A stretch of 25,191 nucleotides of DNA from a virus (Duplodnaviria > Heunggongvirae > Uroviricota > Caudoviricetes): the IMG/VR virus record IMGVR_UViG_2778261276_000008, positions 1 to 25,191 of that record; one strand, written 5' to 3'. Every line of letters starts with the position of its first letter. The stretch's first letter is position 1. Below, piece by piece: positions 5,814-22,336 of this stretch. A model generated the notes under the pieces. That model was given only the letters and a program-made list of their open reading frames with translations, searched no databases and was not told the origin of the DNA. Made by a program: the position numbers and the translations under genes.

Positions 5814-8224
5814 GTCATGACGATATGAGCAACTCTAGCGGCTTTAACGAGGCCGCTGCATCATTTTCATGGAACGGCCCGAAAAAGGCCATTAACCCTT
5901 ATCTGGACCCGGCGGAATTTGCGCCGGAGTCTGCACTTTCAAACCTGATCACTCTGTATGCTGCCGATAACGAGCAGGAACAACTGCGCCGCGAGGCACT
6001 GAGTGAGCAGGTCTGGGAGCGTTATTTCTTTAATGAATCCCGTGATCCTGTCCAGCGCGAAATGGAGCAGGATAAGCTCATTAGCCGCGCAAAGCTTGCG
6101 CATGAGCAGCAGCTTTTTAACCCGGACATGGTCATTCTGGCAGATGTCAGCGCCCAGCCTACCCACATCAGCAAGCCGCTGATGCAACGTATCGAATACT
6201 TCAGCAGCCTGGGCAGGCCAAAGGCTTATTCCCGCTATTTGCGTGAGACGATTAAGCCATGTCTGGAGCGACTGGATTGTGTACGCGACAGTCAGCTATC
6301 CGCTTCTTTCCGTTTTATGGCAAGCCATCAAGGGCTTGAGGGCCTGCTGATCCTGCCTGAAATGAGTCAGGATCAGGTAAAACGCCTGTCCACCCTGGTA
6401 GCTGCGCATATGAGCATGTGCCTTGATGCCGCTTGTGGCGATTTATATGCCACCGATGACGTTAAGCCAGAAGAAATCCGCAAGACATGGGAAAAGGTGG
6501 CAGCGGAAACCCTGCGACTGGATGTTATCCCGCCTGCGTTTGAGCAACTCCGCCGGAAAAGAAACCGCCGCAAACCCGTGCCCTATGAACTCATACCGGG
6601 TTCGCTGGCACGTATGCTTTGCGCCGACTGGTGGTATCGAAAATTGTGGAAGATGCGTTGCGAATGGCGGGAAGAGCAGTTGCGTGCTGTCTGCCTGGTC
6701 AGCAAAAAAGCATCTCCCTATGTCAGCTATGAAGCCGTGACGCATAAACGTGAGCAGCGCCGTAAGTCGCTGGAGTTTTTCCGTTCTCATGAACTGGTGA
6801 ACGAAGACGGCGACACGCTGGATATGGAAGATGTGGTAAACGCCAGCAGCAGCAACCCGGCACATCGCCGCAATGAGATGATGGCCTGTGTTAAAGGTCT
6901 GGAGCTTATCGCAGAAATGCGTGGTGACTGCGCCGTTTTCTACACTATCACCTGTCCGTCACGTTTCCATTCCACGCTCAACAACGGCAGACCCAACCCG
7001 ACCTGGACAAATGCGACGGTAAGACAAAGCAGCGATTATCTGGTCGGCATGTTTGCTGCATTTCGTAAGGCTATGCACAAAGCCGGGTTGCGCTGGTATG
7101 GCGTGCGGGTGGCTGAGCCGCACCATGACGGTACTGTGCACTGGCATCTCATGTGTTTCATGCGCAAAAAAGACCGCCGCGCCATTACTGCATTGTTGCG
7201 TAAGTTTGCCATCCGTGAAGACCGCGAGGAACTGGGTAATAACACAGGTCCACGCTTTAAATCTGAGCTGATAAACCCACGCAAAGGAACACCGACAAGC
7301 TACATCGCGAAATACATCAGTAAGAACATTGACGGGCGTGGTCTGGCTGGCGAGATCAGCAAGGAAACGGGTAAATCCCTGCGTGATAATGCTGAATACG
7401 TTAATGCCTGGGCGTCTCTGCATCGTGTTCAGCAATTCCGCTTCTTTGGCATTCCGGGGCGTCAGGCTTACCGTGAACTGCGATTGCTGGCTGGTCAGGC
7501 GGCAAGGCAACAGGGGGACAAAAAAGCAGGTGCGCCGGTACTGGATAACCCGCGCCTTGATGCCATCCTGGCTGCTGCTGATGCTGGTTGTTTTGCCACC
7601 TACATCATGAAGCAGGGCGGCGTACTGGTTCCCCGCAAATATCACCTTATCAGAACAGCTTATGAAATTAACGAAGAGCCGACTGCTTATGGCGATCACG
7701 GTATTCGTATTTATGGCATCTGGTCACCCATTGTACAGGGCAAGATTTGCACTCATGCAGTGAAGTGGAAAATGGTTCGTAAGGCCGTTGACGTTCAGGA
7801 GGCGGCAGCCGACCAGGGCGCTTGCGCCCCTTGGACTCGTGGCAATAACTGTCCCCTTGCTGAAAATTTGAACCAACAAGGGAAAGACAAATCAGCTGAT
7901 GGGGACTCCAGAACGGATATTACCCGTATGAATGACAAGGAGTTGCACGATTACCTGCACAGTATGAGCAAAAAAGAGCGCCGGGAACTGGCTGCAAGGT
8001 TACGCCAGGTGAAACCGAAACGGCGTAAAGACTACAAACAGCGAATTACAGACCATCAGCGACAGCAGCTCGTCTATGAACTGAAGTCCAGGGGATTTGA
8101 TGGCAGCGAGAAAGAAGTCGATTTGCTCCTTCGCGGCGGCAGTATTCCGTCAGGAGCAGGCCTGCGTATCTTCTATCGGAACCAGCGTCTGAAGGAAGAT
8201 GATAAGTGGCGGAACCTGTATTAA
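5810..8224 (+). CDS. A: Replication initiation endonuclease (P2 gpA family, rolling-circle HUH), 804 aa
   Basis: HUH-like HWHLMCF motif and YIAKYISK catalytic tyrosine motif. Size and position match P2/186 gene A. Confidence 0.9.
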
Positions 8225-8318
8225 TTACGCGGGTTAACAATTCGTGCTCTTAATAATACCAGGCATATCAGGCCGATGAACGTAAAAAAACGTTTTACAT
8301 CAGTAAGATTATTATATA

Positions 8319-8334
8319 CTGTAAATATAAACAG
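8319..8334. promoter_or_regulatory. LexA box (CTGTAAATATAAACAG) in the promoter of the tum-like operon
   Basis: Exact CTGT-N8-ACAG with an AT-rich spacer, 43 bp upstream of the ATG at 8377 and overlapping -10-like hexamers. Position is equivalent to the 186 SOS promoter p95. Confidence 0.6.
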
Positions 8335-8376
8335 TGGTTATGTGTACAGTATTGTTTTGGTGTCATAGGAGGAAAG

Positions 8377-8565
8377 ATGCAGGACTATTTTTTGGAGTCT
8401 TTGAAGCTCCAGCGCATTGATTTTTTTCTTAAGCTTGTAGCGGCTAGTGAGTGTAGTGATGAAGAGAAGGGGCTGGCTCTGCAGTGGGTTTCTGAATTGA
8501 CTGATGAACTCATGGCAAAAATCAGAAGCCACGAATACAACCGCTCAATGGATGTCATCAGCTGA
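8377..8565 (+). CDS. Small protein, 62 aa, first gene of the LexA-controlled operon
   Basis: AGGAGG SD 5 nt upstream. Immediately followed by the DinI-like gene. Confidence 0.5.
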   Translation: MQDYFLESLKLQRIDFFLKLVAASECSDEEKGLALQWVSELTDELMAKIRSHEYNRSMDVIS

Positions 8566-8575
8566 GGTGACTTTT

Positions 8576-8809
8576 ATGCGCATTGAAATAATGATCGATA
8601 AAGAGCAGAAGATTAGCCAGTCTACCCTGGACGCACTTGAATCCGAGCTTTACCGCAATCTGCGCCCCCTGTATCCCAAAACGGTAATTCGCATTCGCAA
8701 AGGTAGCTCTAACGGTGTGGAACTAACCGGACTGCAACTGGATGAAGAAAGAAAACAAGTGATGAAAATTATGCAGAAGGTGTGGGAGGACGACAGCTGG
8801 CTGCATTAA
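8576..8809 (+). CDS. DinI-family protein (186 Tum-like SOS antirepressor module), 77 aa
   Basis: Sequence MRIEIMIDKEQKISQ...LYRNL...IRIRKGSSNGVELTG...VMKIMQKVWEDDSWL resembles E. coli DinI (MRIEVTIAKT... ending in the W-rich acidic tail). GAGGTG SD 5 nt upstream of the ATG. Confidence 0.7.
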   Translation: MRIEIMIDKEQKISQSTLDALESELYRNLRPLYPKTVIRIRKGSSNGVELTGLQLDEERKQVMKIMQKVWEDDSWLH

Positions 8810-9811: not shown

Positions 9812-11551
9812 ATGGAATTGCACGCATATACTAGAACCATATCAGAATTACTTTCGGTTAATAGAAAATATGTTGTCCCAAGATTTCAGCGAGAATATTC
9901 TTGGGTAAAAGAACAAATTAATGAGCTTTGGTATGATGTAATATCTAATATCAAATTAGAGAATGATTTCACATATTCTAATAATGAGTATTTTATTGGT
10001 TCTTTAGTTTTAGTTGGAGATGAAACAGGAAGGGAAATGCAAATAGTTGATGGTCAGCAACGACTTACAACTCTTACGATTTTTCTTTCCGTTTTATGTG
10101 AGGCGTTCAAGCTAAACAATCAATCAGATTTAGCATCTGCTCTATTTGAAAATTATATTGAAGGTCGTGATGATGATGGTAAGAAATTTTTTAAGCTAAT
10201 AAATGAAACACCTAAGCCTTTTTTTCAGAAAAATATCCAACACCTTAATAAGGCAGATGACGCACCCCAGACACAAGAGGAGCGAAATCTCTTGTCTGCA
10301 TATAAGGAAATTACATCGTTAGCCTCAAAGGAAAAATTGGGAAAGTATTTTTCAGTCGAAATTAATACTGAAGATAATTATTCCAGTGTATTAAAAGCAA
10401 TTAGGGATCAGATTTTAAGATTTCTTAAGATAATTTTTATTACTGTTAATGAAGAGGACGAGGCGTATACAATATTTGAAACATTAAATGCGAGAGGGAT
10501 GAATTTAAGTTTTGTAGATCTAATTAAAAATAAATTATTTAAAGCGTTAAACAACCCTCATCCAAATGATGATGCAAAAGATAATTGGAAGGCTATACGT
10601 ACTACTTTAATGCAAAGAAATGGTGTAGGGACTTTTGAAAATTTCATGAGGCACTGGTGGGTGTCGAAGTATGCTTACGTAAGCAATGAAAATCTTTATA
10701 AGTCCTTTATTGGAAAATGGCGTAAGGGGGAAATTAATCCGGTAACCTTTATTGAAGAATTGAAACAGGATGCCGAATTGTATGTACGCTTGTCATCTCC
10801 TTTGGAGAGTGATTATCCACAAATGGAAGATAAACAGATATTCCATTCGTTGAATGCAATTAGGCTATTTGGTATAACGCAGTGTAGACCTTTTTTATTA
10901 GCTTTACTAAAGGCAAAACAGCAAAGGAGATTGCGTCAATGTGATCTTTTAAAAGCAGTTAAATATATTGAAAATTTTCATTTTGTATTTAATGCGATAT
11001 GTTCATTAAGGCCGTCAGGGATAGAAGGTGCATATTCTAAGGCCGCAAGAGCAATAAATTCACCAAATGCTACAAAAGTAACTAATGGTACAACAATTGA
11101 ACAGTTATGCTTGTTGTTGAGTAACCGCAAGCCAGAAATTTCTGTATTCACTGAAAATTTCAGAGATATATTATTTACTGATGACAACTCCAAGCAAAAA
11201 AGATTGGTCCAATATATTATAAATAAATTTGAAATGGCCCGTCATAATGGAGATGAGTATCGTCCTAATTCTATTTCTTTAGAGCATATAATGCCTCAAA
11301 GTGCTGGCAACGATAAGGAAATAGGAATGATTGGAAATATAATCCCTCTGTCAAAAGAACTTAATGAGCAAGCTGGTAATAAATCATTGGCACAAAAGCT
11401 CTCTATCTATTCACAATCGGAGTTTAGATTGACGGAAGAGTTTATTAGTGAACTTGAAACCATTTACCATAATGAATGGAATCTCCAGTCTATTATTCAG
11501 AAGACAGATAGAATGGCTGGTGAGGCTTATATGAATATTTGGAGTCATTAA
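9812..11551 (+). CDS. DUF262/DUF1524 (GmrSD-like) putative type IV restriction / anti-phage nuclease, 579 aa
   Basis: N-terminal DUF262 hallmarks (RFQREYSW at about aa 23-31, DGQQRLTTL at aa 80-88). C-terminal His-Me-finger-like SLEHIMPQS (His about 492) followed by Asn residues. AT-rich single gene. Confidence 0.75.
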   Translation: MELHAYTRTISELLSVNRKYVVPRFQREYSWVKEQINELWYDVISNIKLENDFTYSNNEYFIGSLVLVGDETGREMQIVDGQQRLTTLTIFLSVLCEAFKLNNQSDLASALFENYIEGRDDDGKKFFKLINETPKPFFQKNIQHLNKADDAPQTQEERNLLSAYKEITSLASKEKLGKYFSVEINTEDNYSSVLKAIRDQILRFLKIIFITVNEEDEAYTIFETLNARGMNLSFVDLIKNKLFKALNNPHPNDDAKDNWKAIRTTLMQRNGVGTFENFMRHWWVSKYAYVSNENLYKSFIGKWRKGEINPVTFIEELKQDAELYVRLSSPLESDYPQMEDKQIFHSLNAIRLFGITQCRPFLLALLKAKQQRRLRQCDLLKAVKYIENFHFVFNAICSLRPSGIEGAYSKAARAINSPNATKVTNGTTIEQLCLLLSNRKPEISVFTENFRDILFTDDNSKQKRLVQYIINKFEMARHNGDEYRPNSISLEHIMPQSAGNDKEIGMIGNIIPLSKELNEQAGNKSLAQKLSIYSQSEFRLTEEFISELETIYHNEWNLQSIIQKTDRMAGEAYMNIWSH

Positions 11552-19507: not shown

Positions 19508-19901
19508 AGCGGTGCCTTATGTCCGCAATAACCCGGACAAACTGCATCTGTTTGTGGATAACGGTTCGCTGGTTGCCACGGGGGCCAGCTCCATGTCATG
19601 GGAGTACCGCTATACCCTGAACGTGGTGATAGAGGATTTCAGCGGCGACCAGAATCTGCTGATGGCCCCGGTTTTACTGTGGCTTCGGGATAACCAGCCC
19701 GATGCCATCAATAACCCGGCGTTACGGGAAAAGCTATTCACCTTTGAGGTGGATATTTTGCGCAACGATGTCTGTGATATCAGCCTTAACCTGCAACTGA
19801 CGGAACGTGTGCTGGTCAGTACTGACGGCAGTGTGTCGAGCGTTGAAGCTGTAGCAGAACCCGATGAACCTGAAGAAATGTGGACGGTGAAACGTGGCTG
19901 A
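19470..19901 (+). CDS. R: Tail completion protein R (P2 gpR family)
   Basis: GTG at 19470 has an AGGAG SD 8 nt upstream. Sequence pattern LR.AL...V......P..L..FVDNGS resembles gpR as I recall it. Confidence 0.7.
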   Translation: MNKPQSLRHALNKAVPYVRNNPDKLHLFVDNGSLVATGASSMSWEYRYTLNVVIEDFSGDQNLLMAPVLLWLRDNQPDAINNPALREKLFTFEVDILRNDVCDISLNLQLTERVLVSTDGSVSSVEAVAEPDEPEEMWTVKRG

Positions 19902-20340
19902 ACTGCAGAAGGTGGACGACTGGCTGAGTGCCTTGCTGGCGAATCTGGAACCAGCCACGAGAAGCCGCATGATGCGCCAGCTGGCGCAGGAACTGCGCCG
20001 GACACAGCAGCAGAATATCAGGATGCAGCGCAATCCAGATGGCAGCAGTTATGAACCGCGCAGGGTAACAGCACGCAGCAAAAAAGGCCGCATCAAACGT
20101 CAGATGTTTGCAAAGCTGCGCACCACAAAATACCTGAAAACTGCCGCCAGCGCCGACTCTGCCAGCGTACAGTTTGAAGGCAAGGTGCAGCGTATTGCCC
20201 GTGTTCACCATTACGGCCTGCGCGATCGTGTCAGTCGCAAAGGACCGGAAGTGCGTTATGCAGAGCGGCGGTTGCTTGGTATCAATAACAAGATGCAGTC
20301 TGTCATTGGAGATATATTGCATCAGTGGCTGTTTAAATGA
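19894..20340 (+). CDS. S: Tail completion / virion morphogenesis protein S (P2 gpS family), 148 aa
   Basis: Position after R with overlapping start. Size matches P2 gpS (about 150 aa). Confidence 0.7.
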   Translation: MAELQKVDDWLSALLANLEPATRSRMMRQLAQELRRTQQQNIRMQRNPDGSSYEPRRVTARSKKGRIKRQMFAKLRTTKYLKTAASADSASVQFEGKVQRIARVHHYGLRDRVSRKGPEVRYAERRLLGINNKMQSVIGDILHQWLFK

Positions 20341-20365
20341 GTCAACTAATTTGGTTAATCTAATT

Positions 20366-20384
20366 TATTCGTTGTTAACGAATA
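20366..20384 (+). terminator. Hairpin TATTCGTT-GTT-AACGAATA followed by a T-rich tract
   Basis: Perfect 8-bp stem directly after the S stop and abutting the stop of the convergent HNH-motif gene. Confidence 0.4.
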
Positions 20385-21200
20385 TCATATTTTTAATTTT
20401 TTATGGATATGCTCCATCCCTAAATTAGATATCTCTTTTTTTAGCTGGGTTTCACTTGCAGTTATCCAGTTTTTTCCACAGTTTGGTAGAAGCATCTCGC
20501 TACTTGACGGATTGATAAGTTTTACTTTTTCATTCTTTATAATTTTGTTTTTCAAATAACTTTTACTTATTAAGGCTGATTTTTCAGTTATAACGAGATA
20601 AAAAAATATGCTTCCAAAAAATATACCTTTTAAAATAATACCGCTGCGTAACAGAACAGGGTCATTTTTGGTTATTCTCATTTTAAAGGGAGAGCAAAGG
20701 TTGTCTTCACTTGTAGGTATATTAAGTTCGCTTTTTTGCTCGTCAGTAAGTTTAAGAGGCATGAGCAGTCCAGCGAAGAGCATGACATCTTTTTCTGAAG
20801 GCAAAGGTTCTCCGCGGAGAATATAATCTTTATATGCGCCAAAAATATGTGTGGATGGATCATTGACCGCGCTTGCCGAGTTGTAAGAAATTTTCATTAA
20901 CCAGCGTAGCAATAAATGATAATCATAAGTTATAGTCGTTTGTGTCTTTAGATAAAGTTGGGTTAAGAAACCGTTTCTGGCTAAAAACTGACTTCCATAA
21001 TCATCTAAAAAACTTAATGCTCCACCATTGCATGTTTTACAAACATCGGCAATTGTTGCCTCACCACCAATTATATCATTTGCTCTCTCGTTCCAGCCTA
21101 TAAAACGATCTCCAGATTCTTTTTGATATTTATATATAAATTTAGGGATAATATGTTCTCTTTCTATTATTCCATCTTGCTCGCAATATCTGCAGTGCAT
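20385..21200 (-). CDS. HNH-motif nuclease-domain protein with uncharacterised C-terminal domain, 271 aa (cargo at the S-V locus)
   Basis: N-terminal 60 aa carry C3-x2-C6 ... E15-H16-IIPK ... N37/N41 ... C54-x2-C57-N58, the spacing of HNH/His-Me finger nucleases. Gene is AT-rich, on the opposite strand to the late genes, with GGAG SD 8 nt upstream. Confidence 0.6.
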   Translation of the reverse strand: MHCRYCEQDGIIEREHIIPKFIYKYQKESGDRFIGWNERANDIIGGEATIADVCKTCNGGALSFLDDYGSQFLARNGFLTQLYLKTQTTITYDYHLLLRWLMKISYNSASAVNDPSTHIFGAYKDYILRGEPLPSEKDVMLFAGLLMPLKLTDEQKSELNIPTSEDNLCSPFKMRITKNDPVLLRSGIILKGIFFGSIFFYLVITEKSALISKSYLKNKIIKNEKVKLINPSSSEMLLPNCGKNWITASETQLKKEISNLGMEHIHKKLKI

Positions 21201-21244
21201 TATTTTCTCCGTTGATTTTATTTATCGTTAATTTTCAGTTGTAA

Positions 21245-21262
21245 TGTGCCATCCATCATACA
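21245..21262. promoter_or_regulatory. Ogr/Delta-type activator dyad (TGT-N12-ACA) for late promoter of V
   Basis: TGTGCCATCCATCATACA, centred about 55 bp upstream of the V start codon. Confidence 0.5.
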
Positions 21263-21307
21263 ACGGTATGTTATCGACTGAAATTCCATTTAGTTTAACA
21301 TTTTTAC

Positions 21308-21826
21308 ATGAACGCACAATTAACCGAAATCATGCGCCTTATCACCAACCTGATCCGCACTGGGGTAGTCACCGAAGTGGACAGGGAAAACTGGCTTTGC
21401 CGAGTGAAAACGGGCGACCTTGAAACTAACTGGATCAGTTGGCTGACGCTGCGTGCAGGAAATGCCCGGACATGGTGGCGACCATCGGAAGGTGAGCAGG
21501 TGGTGCTGCTGAGTCTGGGCGGTAATCTGGAAACCGCGTTTGCCCTGCCTGCGGTCTACTCAAACCAGTTTCCGCCACCTTCAGGCTCTGAGGACGGCAA
21601 CGTGACGGAATACCCGGACGGCGGCTGGTTTGAATACGAACCCGCCACCGGGCGCTGGTATGTCAGGGGCATCAAATCAATGGTCATTGAGGCCGCTGAC
21701 AATATCACCCTGAAAACCAGTGAGTTTGTGCTGGAGGCTGACCGCACGCGTATTAACAGCGAAGTGGTGATCAATGGTGGCGTTACCCACATTCCGTTTT
21801 GCCGCTTCTCCCAAACCAACGTTTAA
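21308..21826 (+). CDS. V: Baseplate spike/assembly protein V (P2 gpV family), 172 aa, probably C-terminally truncated
   Basis: N-terminus MNAQLTEIMRLITNLIRTGVVTEVD resembles P2 gpV. Shorter than P2 gpV (about 211 aa). No W, J, I, H, G, FI, FII, E, T, U genes follow. Confidence 0.75.
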   Translation: MNAQLTEIMRLITNLIRTGVVTEVDRENWLCRVKTGDLETNWISWLTLRAGNARTWWRPSEGEQVVLLSLGGNLETAFALPAVYSNQFPPPSGSEDGNVTEYPDGGWFEYEPATGRWYVRGIKSMVIEAADNITLKTSEFVLEADRTRINSEVVINGGVTHIPFCRFSQTNV

Positions 21827-22027
21827 GAAAATGCAGAGGTAACAGCTAACTGGCATCATCTCCGGTTTTTATTCAGGGGAATGCCAGTGAAAGTCAGTGG
21901 TTTTAAACAGCCGATAGATGATGCGGAATGGACCATTACGACTCTGACACATACCGTCAGCCCGGATAACGGTTTTATGACCAGTCTGGAGCTTGAAGTG
22001 AGGATTGATGATTTCGAAATGGAATGA
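21827..22027 (+). pseudogene. D: Remnant of the 3' end of tail gene D, in frame with V after its stop codon
   Basis: Open frame ending ...MPVKVSGFKQPIDDAEWTITTLTHTVSPDNGFMTSLELEVRIDDFEME, located immediately upstream of ogr where gene D ends in P2. Resemblance to the gpD C-terminus is from memory only. Confidence 0.45.
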
Positions 22028-22117
22028 TTCTTCGCAATGGAGAACTTTTAAGTTTGCAAAATGGAATAATGAGGTATCATTATTGTGAATTTAGCAAAAA
22101 TGGGGAGAACTCGAAAA

Positions 22118-22336
22118 ATGATGATTTGCCCACTGTGTGGAAGTGCCGCCCATACTCGCAGCAGTTTTCAGGTATCTTCATTGACCAAAGAGCGTTACAA
22201 CCAGTGCCAGAACATTAACTGCAGCCATACTTTTGTTACCCATGAAACTTTTGTTCGTTCGATTGCAACGCCAAAAGAGTCAAATCCGGTTCAGCCGCAT
22301 CCAATGAAATCAGGACAGGTGGCGCTCTCTCTTTGA
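22118..22336 (+). CDS. ogr: Ogr/Delta-family zinc-finger late transcription activator, 72 aa
   Basis: CPLCGSAAHTRSS...KERYNQCQNINCSHTF matches the P2 Ogr CxxC...CxxxxC zinc-finger pattern. Last phage gene before the att repeat. Confidence 0.85.
   Translation: MMICPLCGSAAHTRSSFQVSSLTKERYNQCQNINCSHTFVTHETFVRSIATPKESNPVQPHPMKSGQVALSL

Follow-up and report, generated by a model that had tools for sequence, protein, structure and literature searches.

P2-like phages carry non-essential cargo genes in fixed slots, as exemplified by the exclusion genes old, tin and fun/Z and by orf30 of P2. A hotspot of P2 between gpA and Q was described by Rousset et al. (PMC9122126) and a second one at fun by Vassallo et al. 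(PMC9519451), and a survey from 2026 added a hotspot in the tail genes, downstream of gpL, which holds 16% of the P2 defence systems (PMC13586616). Streamlined one-gene cassettes for nuclease-type anti-phage proteins were reported from the integron of V. cholerae (strain N16961) in a 2024 preprint (Darracq et al.), namely Sirona and Nemetona (both His-Me finger) and Divona (a nuclease-Crr6 fusion). In 2017, Jablonska et al. assigned the nuclease family HNH_5 in part to their group 1 and in part to group 8, a small group from bacteria for which they listed no function (PMC5714182). A direct precedent is an entry in Table S10 of the DefensePredictor study (PMC13092281), in which the cluster represented by WP_075851438.1 (271 aa, 816 nt) is listed as "Predicted novel defense gene" with a mean log-odds of 6.68 (range 4.15 to 8.68; the strict cut-off of the authors is 4) and with a remote HHblits match to the restriction endonucleases Alw26I/Eco31I/Esp3I (probability 88.2, 23% coverage).

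The gene analysed here is located in a 25,191-nt stretch of DNA (IMG/VR record IMGVR_UViG_2778261276_000008, positions 1-25,191), referred to as the window. It encodes a 271-aa protein and lies between the tail completion gene S and the baseplate gene V of a defective P2-like E. coli prophage, where it is lysogenic-conversion cargo (a moron) between two late operons and is read in the direction opposite to theirs. The protein is the very one of the WP_075851438.1 cluster; this accession is the protein encoded in the S-V slot of E. coli 2024CK-00475. Overall, the gene probably encodes a single-gene anti-phage defence nuclease, a reading rendered plausible by its invariant catalytic and zinc residues, its occurrence as a solo gene, the genomic context of its relatives, the cargo slot and the DefensePredictor score.

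The HNH gene and its slot between S and V

The coding sequence extends over 20385..21200 on the minus strand (816 nt, ATG start, stop codon at 20385-20387) and specifies a protein of 30.9 kDa with a pI of 8.7. It was read within the S-V gap (20341-21307), 44 bp from the stop codon of S and 107 bp from the start of V, and is the only substantial open reading frame (ORF) there. The initial annotation, made from the sequence alone, had described an AT-rich 271-aa ORF in antisense to its neighbours and with its own Shine-Dalgarno sequence, and all of this was found again: the ORF is intact, its GC content is about 0.35 (0.33-0.37 across the gene) compared to about 0.57 in the flanks (0.53-0.60 in the late genes), and a GGAG motif (21207..21210, minus strand), read directly from the sequence, is located 6 nt upstream of the ATG. 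At the composition of the gene, with approximately 7% stop codons expected, the chance that 271 consecutive codons stay open is about 2e-9 by our own arithmetic, and the ORF is therefore not a product of chance. Hundreds of homologues and a structure model of high quality (pLDDT 94.6) further support a real gene.

Between the convergent stop codons of S and the HNH gene, an 8-bp A/U-rich hairpin (UAUUCGUU-GUU-AACGAAUA, 20366..20384) is present, with a T-rich run following it on the plus strand, at the position where P2 has its annotated O-operon terminator. The hairpin claimed by the initial annotation thus exists, but its designation as a terminator was only weakly borne out. Fragments of 65 nt containing it gave folding energies of -6.6 (plus strand) and -7.2 kcal/mol (minus strand), with z-scores of -0.5 and -1.9 against shuffled sequences, and it was not called in a terminator scan of the window. 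A role as strong terminator is not supported on these grounds. On the other side of the gene, a TGT-N12-ACA dyad (21245..21262, plus strand), read from the sequence, is kept in the 107-bp spacer, 46-63 bp ahead of the V start. It is likely the Ogr/Delta activator site of the V late promoter; the P2 annotation has an activator-binding site 42-69 bp upstream of V, and a similar TGT-N12-ACA is found at the empty S-V site of phage 500465-1. Since the motif has only six specified bases, this assignment leans on the position rather than on the match.

Gene S (19894..20340, plus strand; Pfam Phage_tail_S, E 1.6e-41) functions in tail completion and virion morphogenesis and is the last gene of the O late operon. 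The order in P2 (NC_001895) is S, O-operon terminator, Orf30 (261 aa, minus strand), activator site and V. Judged from gene order, the layout in the window appears to match that of P2 exactly, the non-essential minus-strand gene included, which agrees with the statement of the initial annotation that the gene occupies the place of orf30. Homology of the 271-aa protein to P2 Orf30, the sequence of which reads like a membrane protein, was ruled out (hhalign probability 0.6%). S and V are just 68 bp apart in Escherichia phage 500465-1 and in many Klebsiella phages. Compared to such cargo-free phages, the homology of the window is lost within the last codons of S and returns at the ATG of V, and the cargo unit therefore amounts to approximately 900 bp.

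Approximately 1040 of 5426 complete E. coli genomes harbor this S/V lineage, and only 10 of them the HNH gene. Around two thirds of the S-V slots were empty in a spread sample of the genomes with this lineage, the others being occupied by a TIR-domain protein, DUF6216, DUF5677 or other single hypothetical genes. Copies of the gene with 99-100% identity occur in these 10 E. coli genomes and in three IMG/VR contigs, and nine of the ten complete-genome copies are intact. E. coli EA7 and Ecol_542 carry the gene in complete prophages, annotated as "hypothetical protein" and accompanied by different cargo in the gpA-portal hotspot. In E. coli 2024CK-00475, an IS1 element is inserted into the 3' end of S (L035, 483-1180), while the adjoining nuclease gene is intact.

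Recurrence of homologues at the S-V locus of other P2-like phages, one of the checks proposed along with the initial annotation, was observed: diverged P2-like viral contigs encode homologues of 52%, 45% and 44% identity, which occupy this slot and are likewise oriented against their neighbours. The accompanying S proteins are 74%, 61% and 56% identical to that of the window, and V is 88% and 70% identical in the contigs with the 52% and 45% homologues. The cargo protein of the latter two (contigs L040 and L042/L043) is far more diverged than the flanking V (and than the capsid protein, 88% in L040), which suggests that the cargo gene evolves rapidly or that alleles are replaced at the S-V slot.

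Domain structure and protein family

Residues 1-78 (20967..21200, minus strand) form a putative Cys4-zinc HNH/His-Me finger core with the pattern C3-x2-C6, E15-H16, D52-V-C54-x2-C57-N58 and D66. Conservation was calculated from an alignment of 71 family sequences. The pair E15-H16 is present in 71/71 of these, with H16 at the end of a predicted strand (12-16). C3 and C6 are conserved to 99%, C54 and C57 to 100%, and an invariant N58 directly follows C57 at the start of a predicted helix (55-59/61-75). The complete set of invariant residues comprises E15, H16, D52, C54, C57, N58, L62, D66, R99 and K103, and at least 90% conservation is found for C3, C6, Y5, P19, V53, L65, L97, W100, N107 and P171. 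For the HNH spacing proposed by the initial annotation (C3, C6, H16, N37/N41, C54, C57), this means that the cysteines and the histidine are retained among the homologues but the asparagines are not: N37 and N41 are absent from more distant members, and the conserved asparagine is N58, joined by E15, D52 and D66.

On the basis of this pattern, C3, C6, C54 and C57 are the zinc ligands of a complete, zinc-stabilised HNH centre, in which H16 is the likely general base and E15 and N58 are likely metal ligands. T4 endonuclease VII has C58-x-x-C61-N62 together with D40/H41, and the HNH domain of Cas9 has D839-H840 ... N863. We take the [D/E]-H ... C-x-x-C-N arrangement of the 271-aa protein to be that of these two enzymes.

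HNH_5 (PF14279) is matched by the query itself with E 5.5e-4 and 20.3 bits, below the curated Pfam cut-off of 27.5 bits. Of the 71 aligned members, 56 match HNH_5 at E <= 0.01 (best value 2.6e-7), a precomputed PF14279 match is recorded for many relatives, and no other Pfam family matches more than one of the 71. A fold comparison yielded 67 matches, among them five HNH nucleases (ZRANB3 at rank 2, GVE2 HNH, EcoKMcrA with 23% identity, a Cas9 and T4 endonuclease VII). Membership in the His-Me finger superfamily is thus well supported by motif and profile and weakly by the fold comparison. Together with the invariant ligands and the solo occurrence described below, the HNH_5 matches uphold the view that a stand-alone HNH nuclease moron is located in a prophage hotspot.

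Residues 79-271 (20388..20966, minus strand) constitute a family-specific basic domain (pI 9.4, compared to 5.2 for the HNH domain). No Pfam, NCBIfam or PADLOC model covers this part in any member, and its fold was not recognised. The full-length predicted model is of high confidence (pLDDT 94.6, pTM 0.92) and forms one compact body without a counterpart among the PDB structures; the initial annotation had likewise found no motif in this part. According to the model, the HNH core is packed against the basic domain. Helix 94-111 of the latter contains the invariant R99 and K103 as well as the near-invariant W100 and N107. A basic conserved surface beside the active site favours direct recognition of DNA. 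Residues 131-271, in contrast to the conserved core, are the most variable stretch of the protein across the relatives. Such a pattern is expected where an arms race acts on a part that confers specificity or serves as a sensor, and the variable distal half would suit a specificity element as well as a phage-protein sensor.

When 5.8 billion proteins were searched by word index, only 11 clusters were returned, whereas a profile run exhaustively against 1.84 billion cluster representatives (50% identity) gave 858 matches with E <= 1e-3, 593 with E <= 1e-10 and 155 with E <= 1e-30. Most members have 250-280 residues and match end to end; they are named "hypothetical protein", "HNH endonuclease" or "HNH endonuclease 5 domain-containing protein" in their sources. 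The query alone gave nothing with NCBIfam and PADLOC (PADLOC-DB 2.0.0, database dated 2023) and only weak matches to families of unknown function in PHROGs. Sequence searches against the PDB with the single sequence, the full-length profile and the N-terminal profile gave nothing meaningful. The family is large and widespread and, apart from the weak HNH_5 match, has no dedicated Pfam, NCBIfam or PADLOC model. Some relatives of approximately 430 residues (P0088, P0101, P0122, P0242 and similar ones) possess an extra C-terminal region of about 160-200 residues, for which weak, sub-threshold matches to Crr6 (PF08847, E 0.004-0.009) were obtained.

Genomic company of the relatives and candidate functions

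A genome scan, run with an 11-sequence alignment, found relatives in Gamma-, Beta- and Alphaproteobacteria, Planctomycetota, Bacillota and Bacteroidota, where they are mostly chromosomal. Their recurrent settings are hotspots of prophages, islands with integrases or defence genes, and an integron. A P2-like prophage of Aeromonas hydrophila encodes a 42% homologue between gpA and Ogr/portal, the classic defence hotspot. Beside the repressor of the same prophage, two DarT ORFs and a Macro-domain protein are located (L027, 1-1790), which makes this a second defence locus in one small prophage. On chromosome 2 of Aliivibrio fischeri (L029, 1-16786), the homologue (8001-8786) is a one-gene cassette of a chromosomal integron array with about 19 attC-like repeats of approximately 129 nt, which also flank the homologue cassette. 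Cassettes near it encode GmrSD_N, DUF2971, ASCH and an acetyltransferase. The homologue of Photobacterium directly follows an integrase and lies approximately 2 kb from Peptidase_M78, Beta_protein and P4 cII (gop-beta-cII-like); in Mucilaginibacter, a gop-beta-cII-like trio adjoins the homologue, and Mrr, DpnII and TIR-like genes are found within approximately 5 kb. Further relatives are accompanied by a serine recombinase and a DUF5343/HEPN_Swt1 pair (Desulfitobacterium), by PDDEXK_4 and two large helicases in an integrase island (Pseudomonas monteilii), and, in two Planctomycetota, by a NERD-domain protein encoded directly upstream.

An all-against-all comparison of the genes within 6 kb of the homologue in 26 loci revealed no conserved partner gene. 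The sole family found in five loci consisted of generic ABC ATPases at varying distance and in varying orientation. As no partner is shared, the gene is a solo unit. No methyltransferase adjoins the homologue in the seven neighbourhoods labelled with Pfam families, and the cassette in the window consists of one gene. The association with defence neighbours is a qualitative one.

Homing endonuclease genes are classically free-standing HNH genes of deviant composition between conserved phage genes, and this is also the look of the gene in the window. A homing enzyme would cut cargo-free S-V junctions during co-infection and be copied into them by repair, with no benefit to the host; possible targets are provided by the many related prophages with an empty S-V junction, and diverged homologues are indeed located at the same junction. 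Against this speaks that no tblastn match was obtained in 50,697 deposited phage genomes, while the relatives reside mostly in bacterial chromosomes (islands, an integron cassette, another P2-like hotspot). Pfam detected none of the DNA-binding modules that homing enzymes typically have, HNH_5 being the only family with matches in two or more of the 71 members. Moreover, the S-V slot is a general recombination hotspot, since unrelated cargo (TIR, DUF6216, DUF5677 and P2 orf30) is found there as well, and an orientation against the late operons, between terminator and V promoter, is unexpected for a gene acting in lytic co-infection. Homing is therefore considered quite improbable. The same grade is given to inert or decaying cargo, a gene that once functioned but has fallen silent in a defective prophage and has no present role. 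H-NS commonly silences AT-rich genes of foreign origin, the window prophage lacks V through D, no promoter was predicted and one E. coli copy is frameshifted; however, the reading frame is uninterrupted, copies with 99-100% identity to it reside in intact prophages, no catalytic residue has been lost, and nine of the ten complete-genome copies are intact.

A nuclease acting in a conflict other than defence against phages, for example against plasmids or satellites (P4), in counter-defence, in degradation of host or competitor DNA, or as a repair helper like lambda NinG/Rap, is unlikely but has somewhat more in its favour. HNH nucleases have many roles (PMC5714182), slots of mobile elements also hold partition systems and toxins (PMC9122126), and an association with integrases, integrons and islands would suit any function in the conflicts of mobile elements. 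The neighbours of the relatives, in contrast, are specifically anti-phage (gop-beta-cII-like, DarT with Macro, Mrr, TIR, HEPN, NERD, GmrSD), and the protein is scored as defence by DefensePredictor; the many chromosomal sites outside phages make it unlikely that the function is bound to the life cycle of P2. The remote match to Alw26I/Eco31I/Esp3I would agree with an orphan type II/IIS restriction endonuclease whose methyltransferase is encoded elsewhere in the genome. This match is confined to the HNH part, though, and neither an adjacent methyltransferase in the annotated neighbourhoods nor a conserved neighbour in the 26 loci was found. In addition, the gene moves as a one-gene cassette of approximately 900 bp, and a sequence-specific enzyme would be lethal to a new host without the methylase, which leaves this explanation a very slim chance.

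Several points weigh against a defence function. No sigma-70-like promoter was found upstream of the HNH gene in a promoter scan, and the upstream regions of the diverged S-V homologues do not align between lineages; expression in the lysogen is therefore only assumed. The copy of E. coli G5 (L036, 486-1299), one of the 10, is frameshifted and split into two ORFs. At two near-invariant positions the E. coli allele has E13 and S110, compared to T (93%) and R (92%) in the family. PADLOC has no model for the query, and the 71 relatives gave two stray single matches with E > 0.002. No experimental phenotype is reported for this family. Within the DefensePredictor supplementary tables, as far as they were available, the WP_075851438.1 cluster occurs in Table S10 only, with no sign of cloning or testing, and the validation rate of that study was 45% of the units tested (PMC13092281). 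Finally, an argument from genomic neighbourhood cannot tell defence apart from other functions in conflicts. The exchanges E13 and S110 are shared by the enterobacterial S-V alleles.

If the gene is a defence nuclease, the HNH protein would be made in the lysogen, where its basic domain, with the invariant R99 and K103 and the near-invariant N107 beside the active site, may hold DNA, and the HNH centre would cut the DNA of an incoming phage. As the gene travels without a methylase or an immunity gene, the sparing of host DNA should come from a feature of phage DNA or from auto-inhibition. The enzyme might require a feature present in phage DNA only, such as a modified base or a replication or recombination structure, which corresponds to a type IV-like logic; alternatively, it might be auto-inhibited until infection, following the logic of abortive infection. 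The larger part of the defence reading falls to direct, restriction-like cutting, which by itself is possible, and the smaller part to a triggered, suicidal nuclease, which is rather doubtful. A more specific proposal can be put forward only tentatively and ranks between the two. It holds that the proteins form an unnamed, widespread family of one-protein immune nucleases, in which an HNH centre like that of T4 endonuclease VII is governed by a sensor domain unmatched in the PDB, with the variable half (131-271) setting the phage range. The sensor domain, of a new kind, would then either read a feature of phage DNA or act as the receptor of a phage protein.

The carrier prophage and relation to known systems

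The window contains a P2-like prophage with CII, gpA, a DinI-like gene, portal, terminase, scaffold, capsid and lysis genes, R and S. Gene V (21308..21826, plus strand; Pfam Phage_base_V, residues 17-84 only) is truncated by a deletion in the prophage: 161 residues align with intact V at 98-99% identity in tblastn, followed by unrelated sequence. Intact V of E. coli EA7 has 579 nt. The prophage is defective, the affected region lying at approximately 21790-22030. A 48-aa ORF at 21881-22027, for which no Pfam match was obtained, is likely the C-terminus of gpD. After it come Ogr (22085-22336) and ybjL, a gene of the host. W, J, I, H, G, the tail sheath and tube genes, the tape measure gene and most of D appear to be deleted. 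None of the complete E. coli genomes has precisely the same deletion. A DinI-like gene (8504-8809, plus strand) is located between gpA and the cargo encoding a GmrSD-type type IV restriction enzyme, as it is in other P2-like prophages. The GmrSD enzyme itself (579 aa, 9812-11551, plus strand; GmrSD_N, E 1.7e-38; GmrSD_C, E 2.4e-15) sits in the classic gpA-portal defence hotspot. With the HNH gene in the S-V slot, one prophage therefore carries two separate candidate nucleases in two hotspots.

Should the HNH gene prove protective, it would represent a compact defence system of approximately 0.8 kb, composed of a nuclease and one unknown domain and sized for integron cassettes and morons alike. 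The S-V slot of P2-like phages would then be a working defence hotspot beside gpA-Q and fun/Z. The well-predicted but unmatched C-terminal fold offers a tractable entry to the question of how nucleases that act alone, with no methylase, discriminate between phage DNA and self, and the gene would put directly to the test a machine-learning prediction found only in a prediction table.

The initial annotation had regarded the system as possibly not yet described. The protein is indeed uncharacterised and unnamed, but its cluster is already contained in DefensePredictor Table S10, where it has a score only, without name or mechanism. It is not mentioned in PMC9122126, PMC9519451 or PMC13586616, and a search of the full-text literature with the RefSeq accession gave no match.

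A close known protein family is HNH_5, with which the protein shares the motif C-x2-C ... E-H-I-I-P ... C-x2-C-N ... D. The HNH_5 model covers about 56 residues, whereas in the present family approximately 30 residues are inserted between the motif halves, and a conserved stretch of approximately 190 residues, described by no model, extends the protein. T4 endonuclease VII and the HNH domain of Cas9 resemble it in the catalytic arrangement. The type IV HNH enzymes of the EcoKMcrA type differ by a reversed domain order, the HNH domain coming first in this protein. No modified-base reader (SRA, PUA/EVE/ASCH/YTH or the McrA N-domain) was recognised by Pfam or by PDB fold, and a reader of unknown kind is possible. 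With Sirona, Nemetona and Divona, the protein shares the format of a one-gene cassette, as the Aliivibrio homologue is also a one-gene cassette, and the ~430-residue variants with their Crr6-like matches recall the Crr6 domain of Divona. Sirona and Nemetona have been described as relatives of NinG and of a type II enzyme rather than of HNH_5, and V. cholerae proteins are absent from the 120 best relatives; identity of the two with this family looks unlikely. Regarding the cargo genes of P2, old, tin and fun are located in other slots and have known targets (PMC9519451), whereas orf30 occupies exactly this slot and strand. The HNH gene is thus not categorically new: it fits the established single-gene nuclease defences of prophage hotspots and had already been flagged by a published model.

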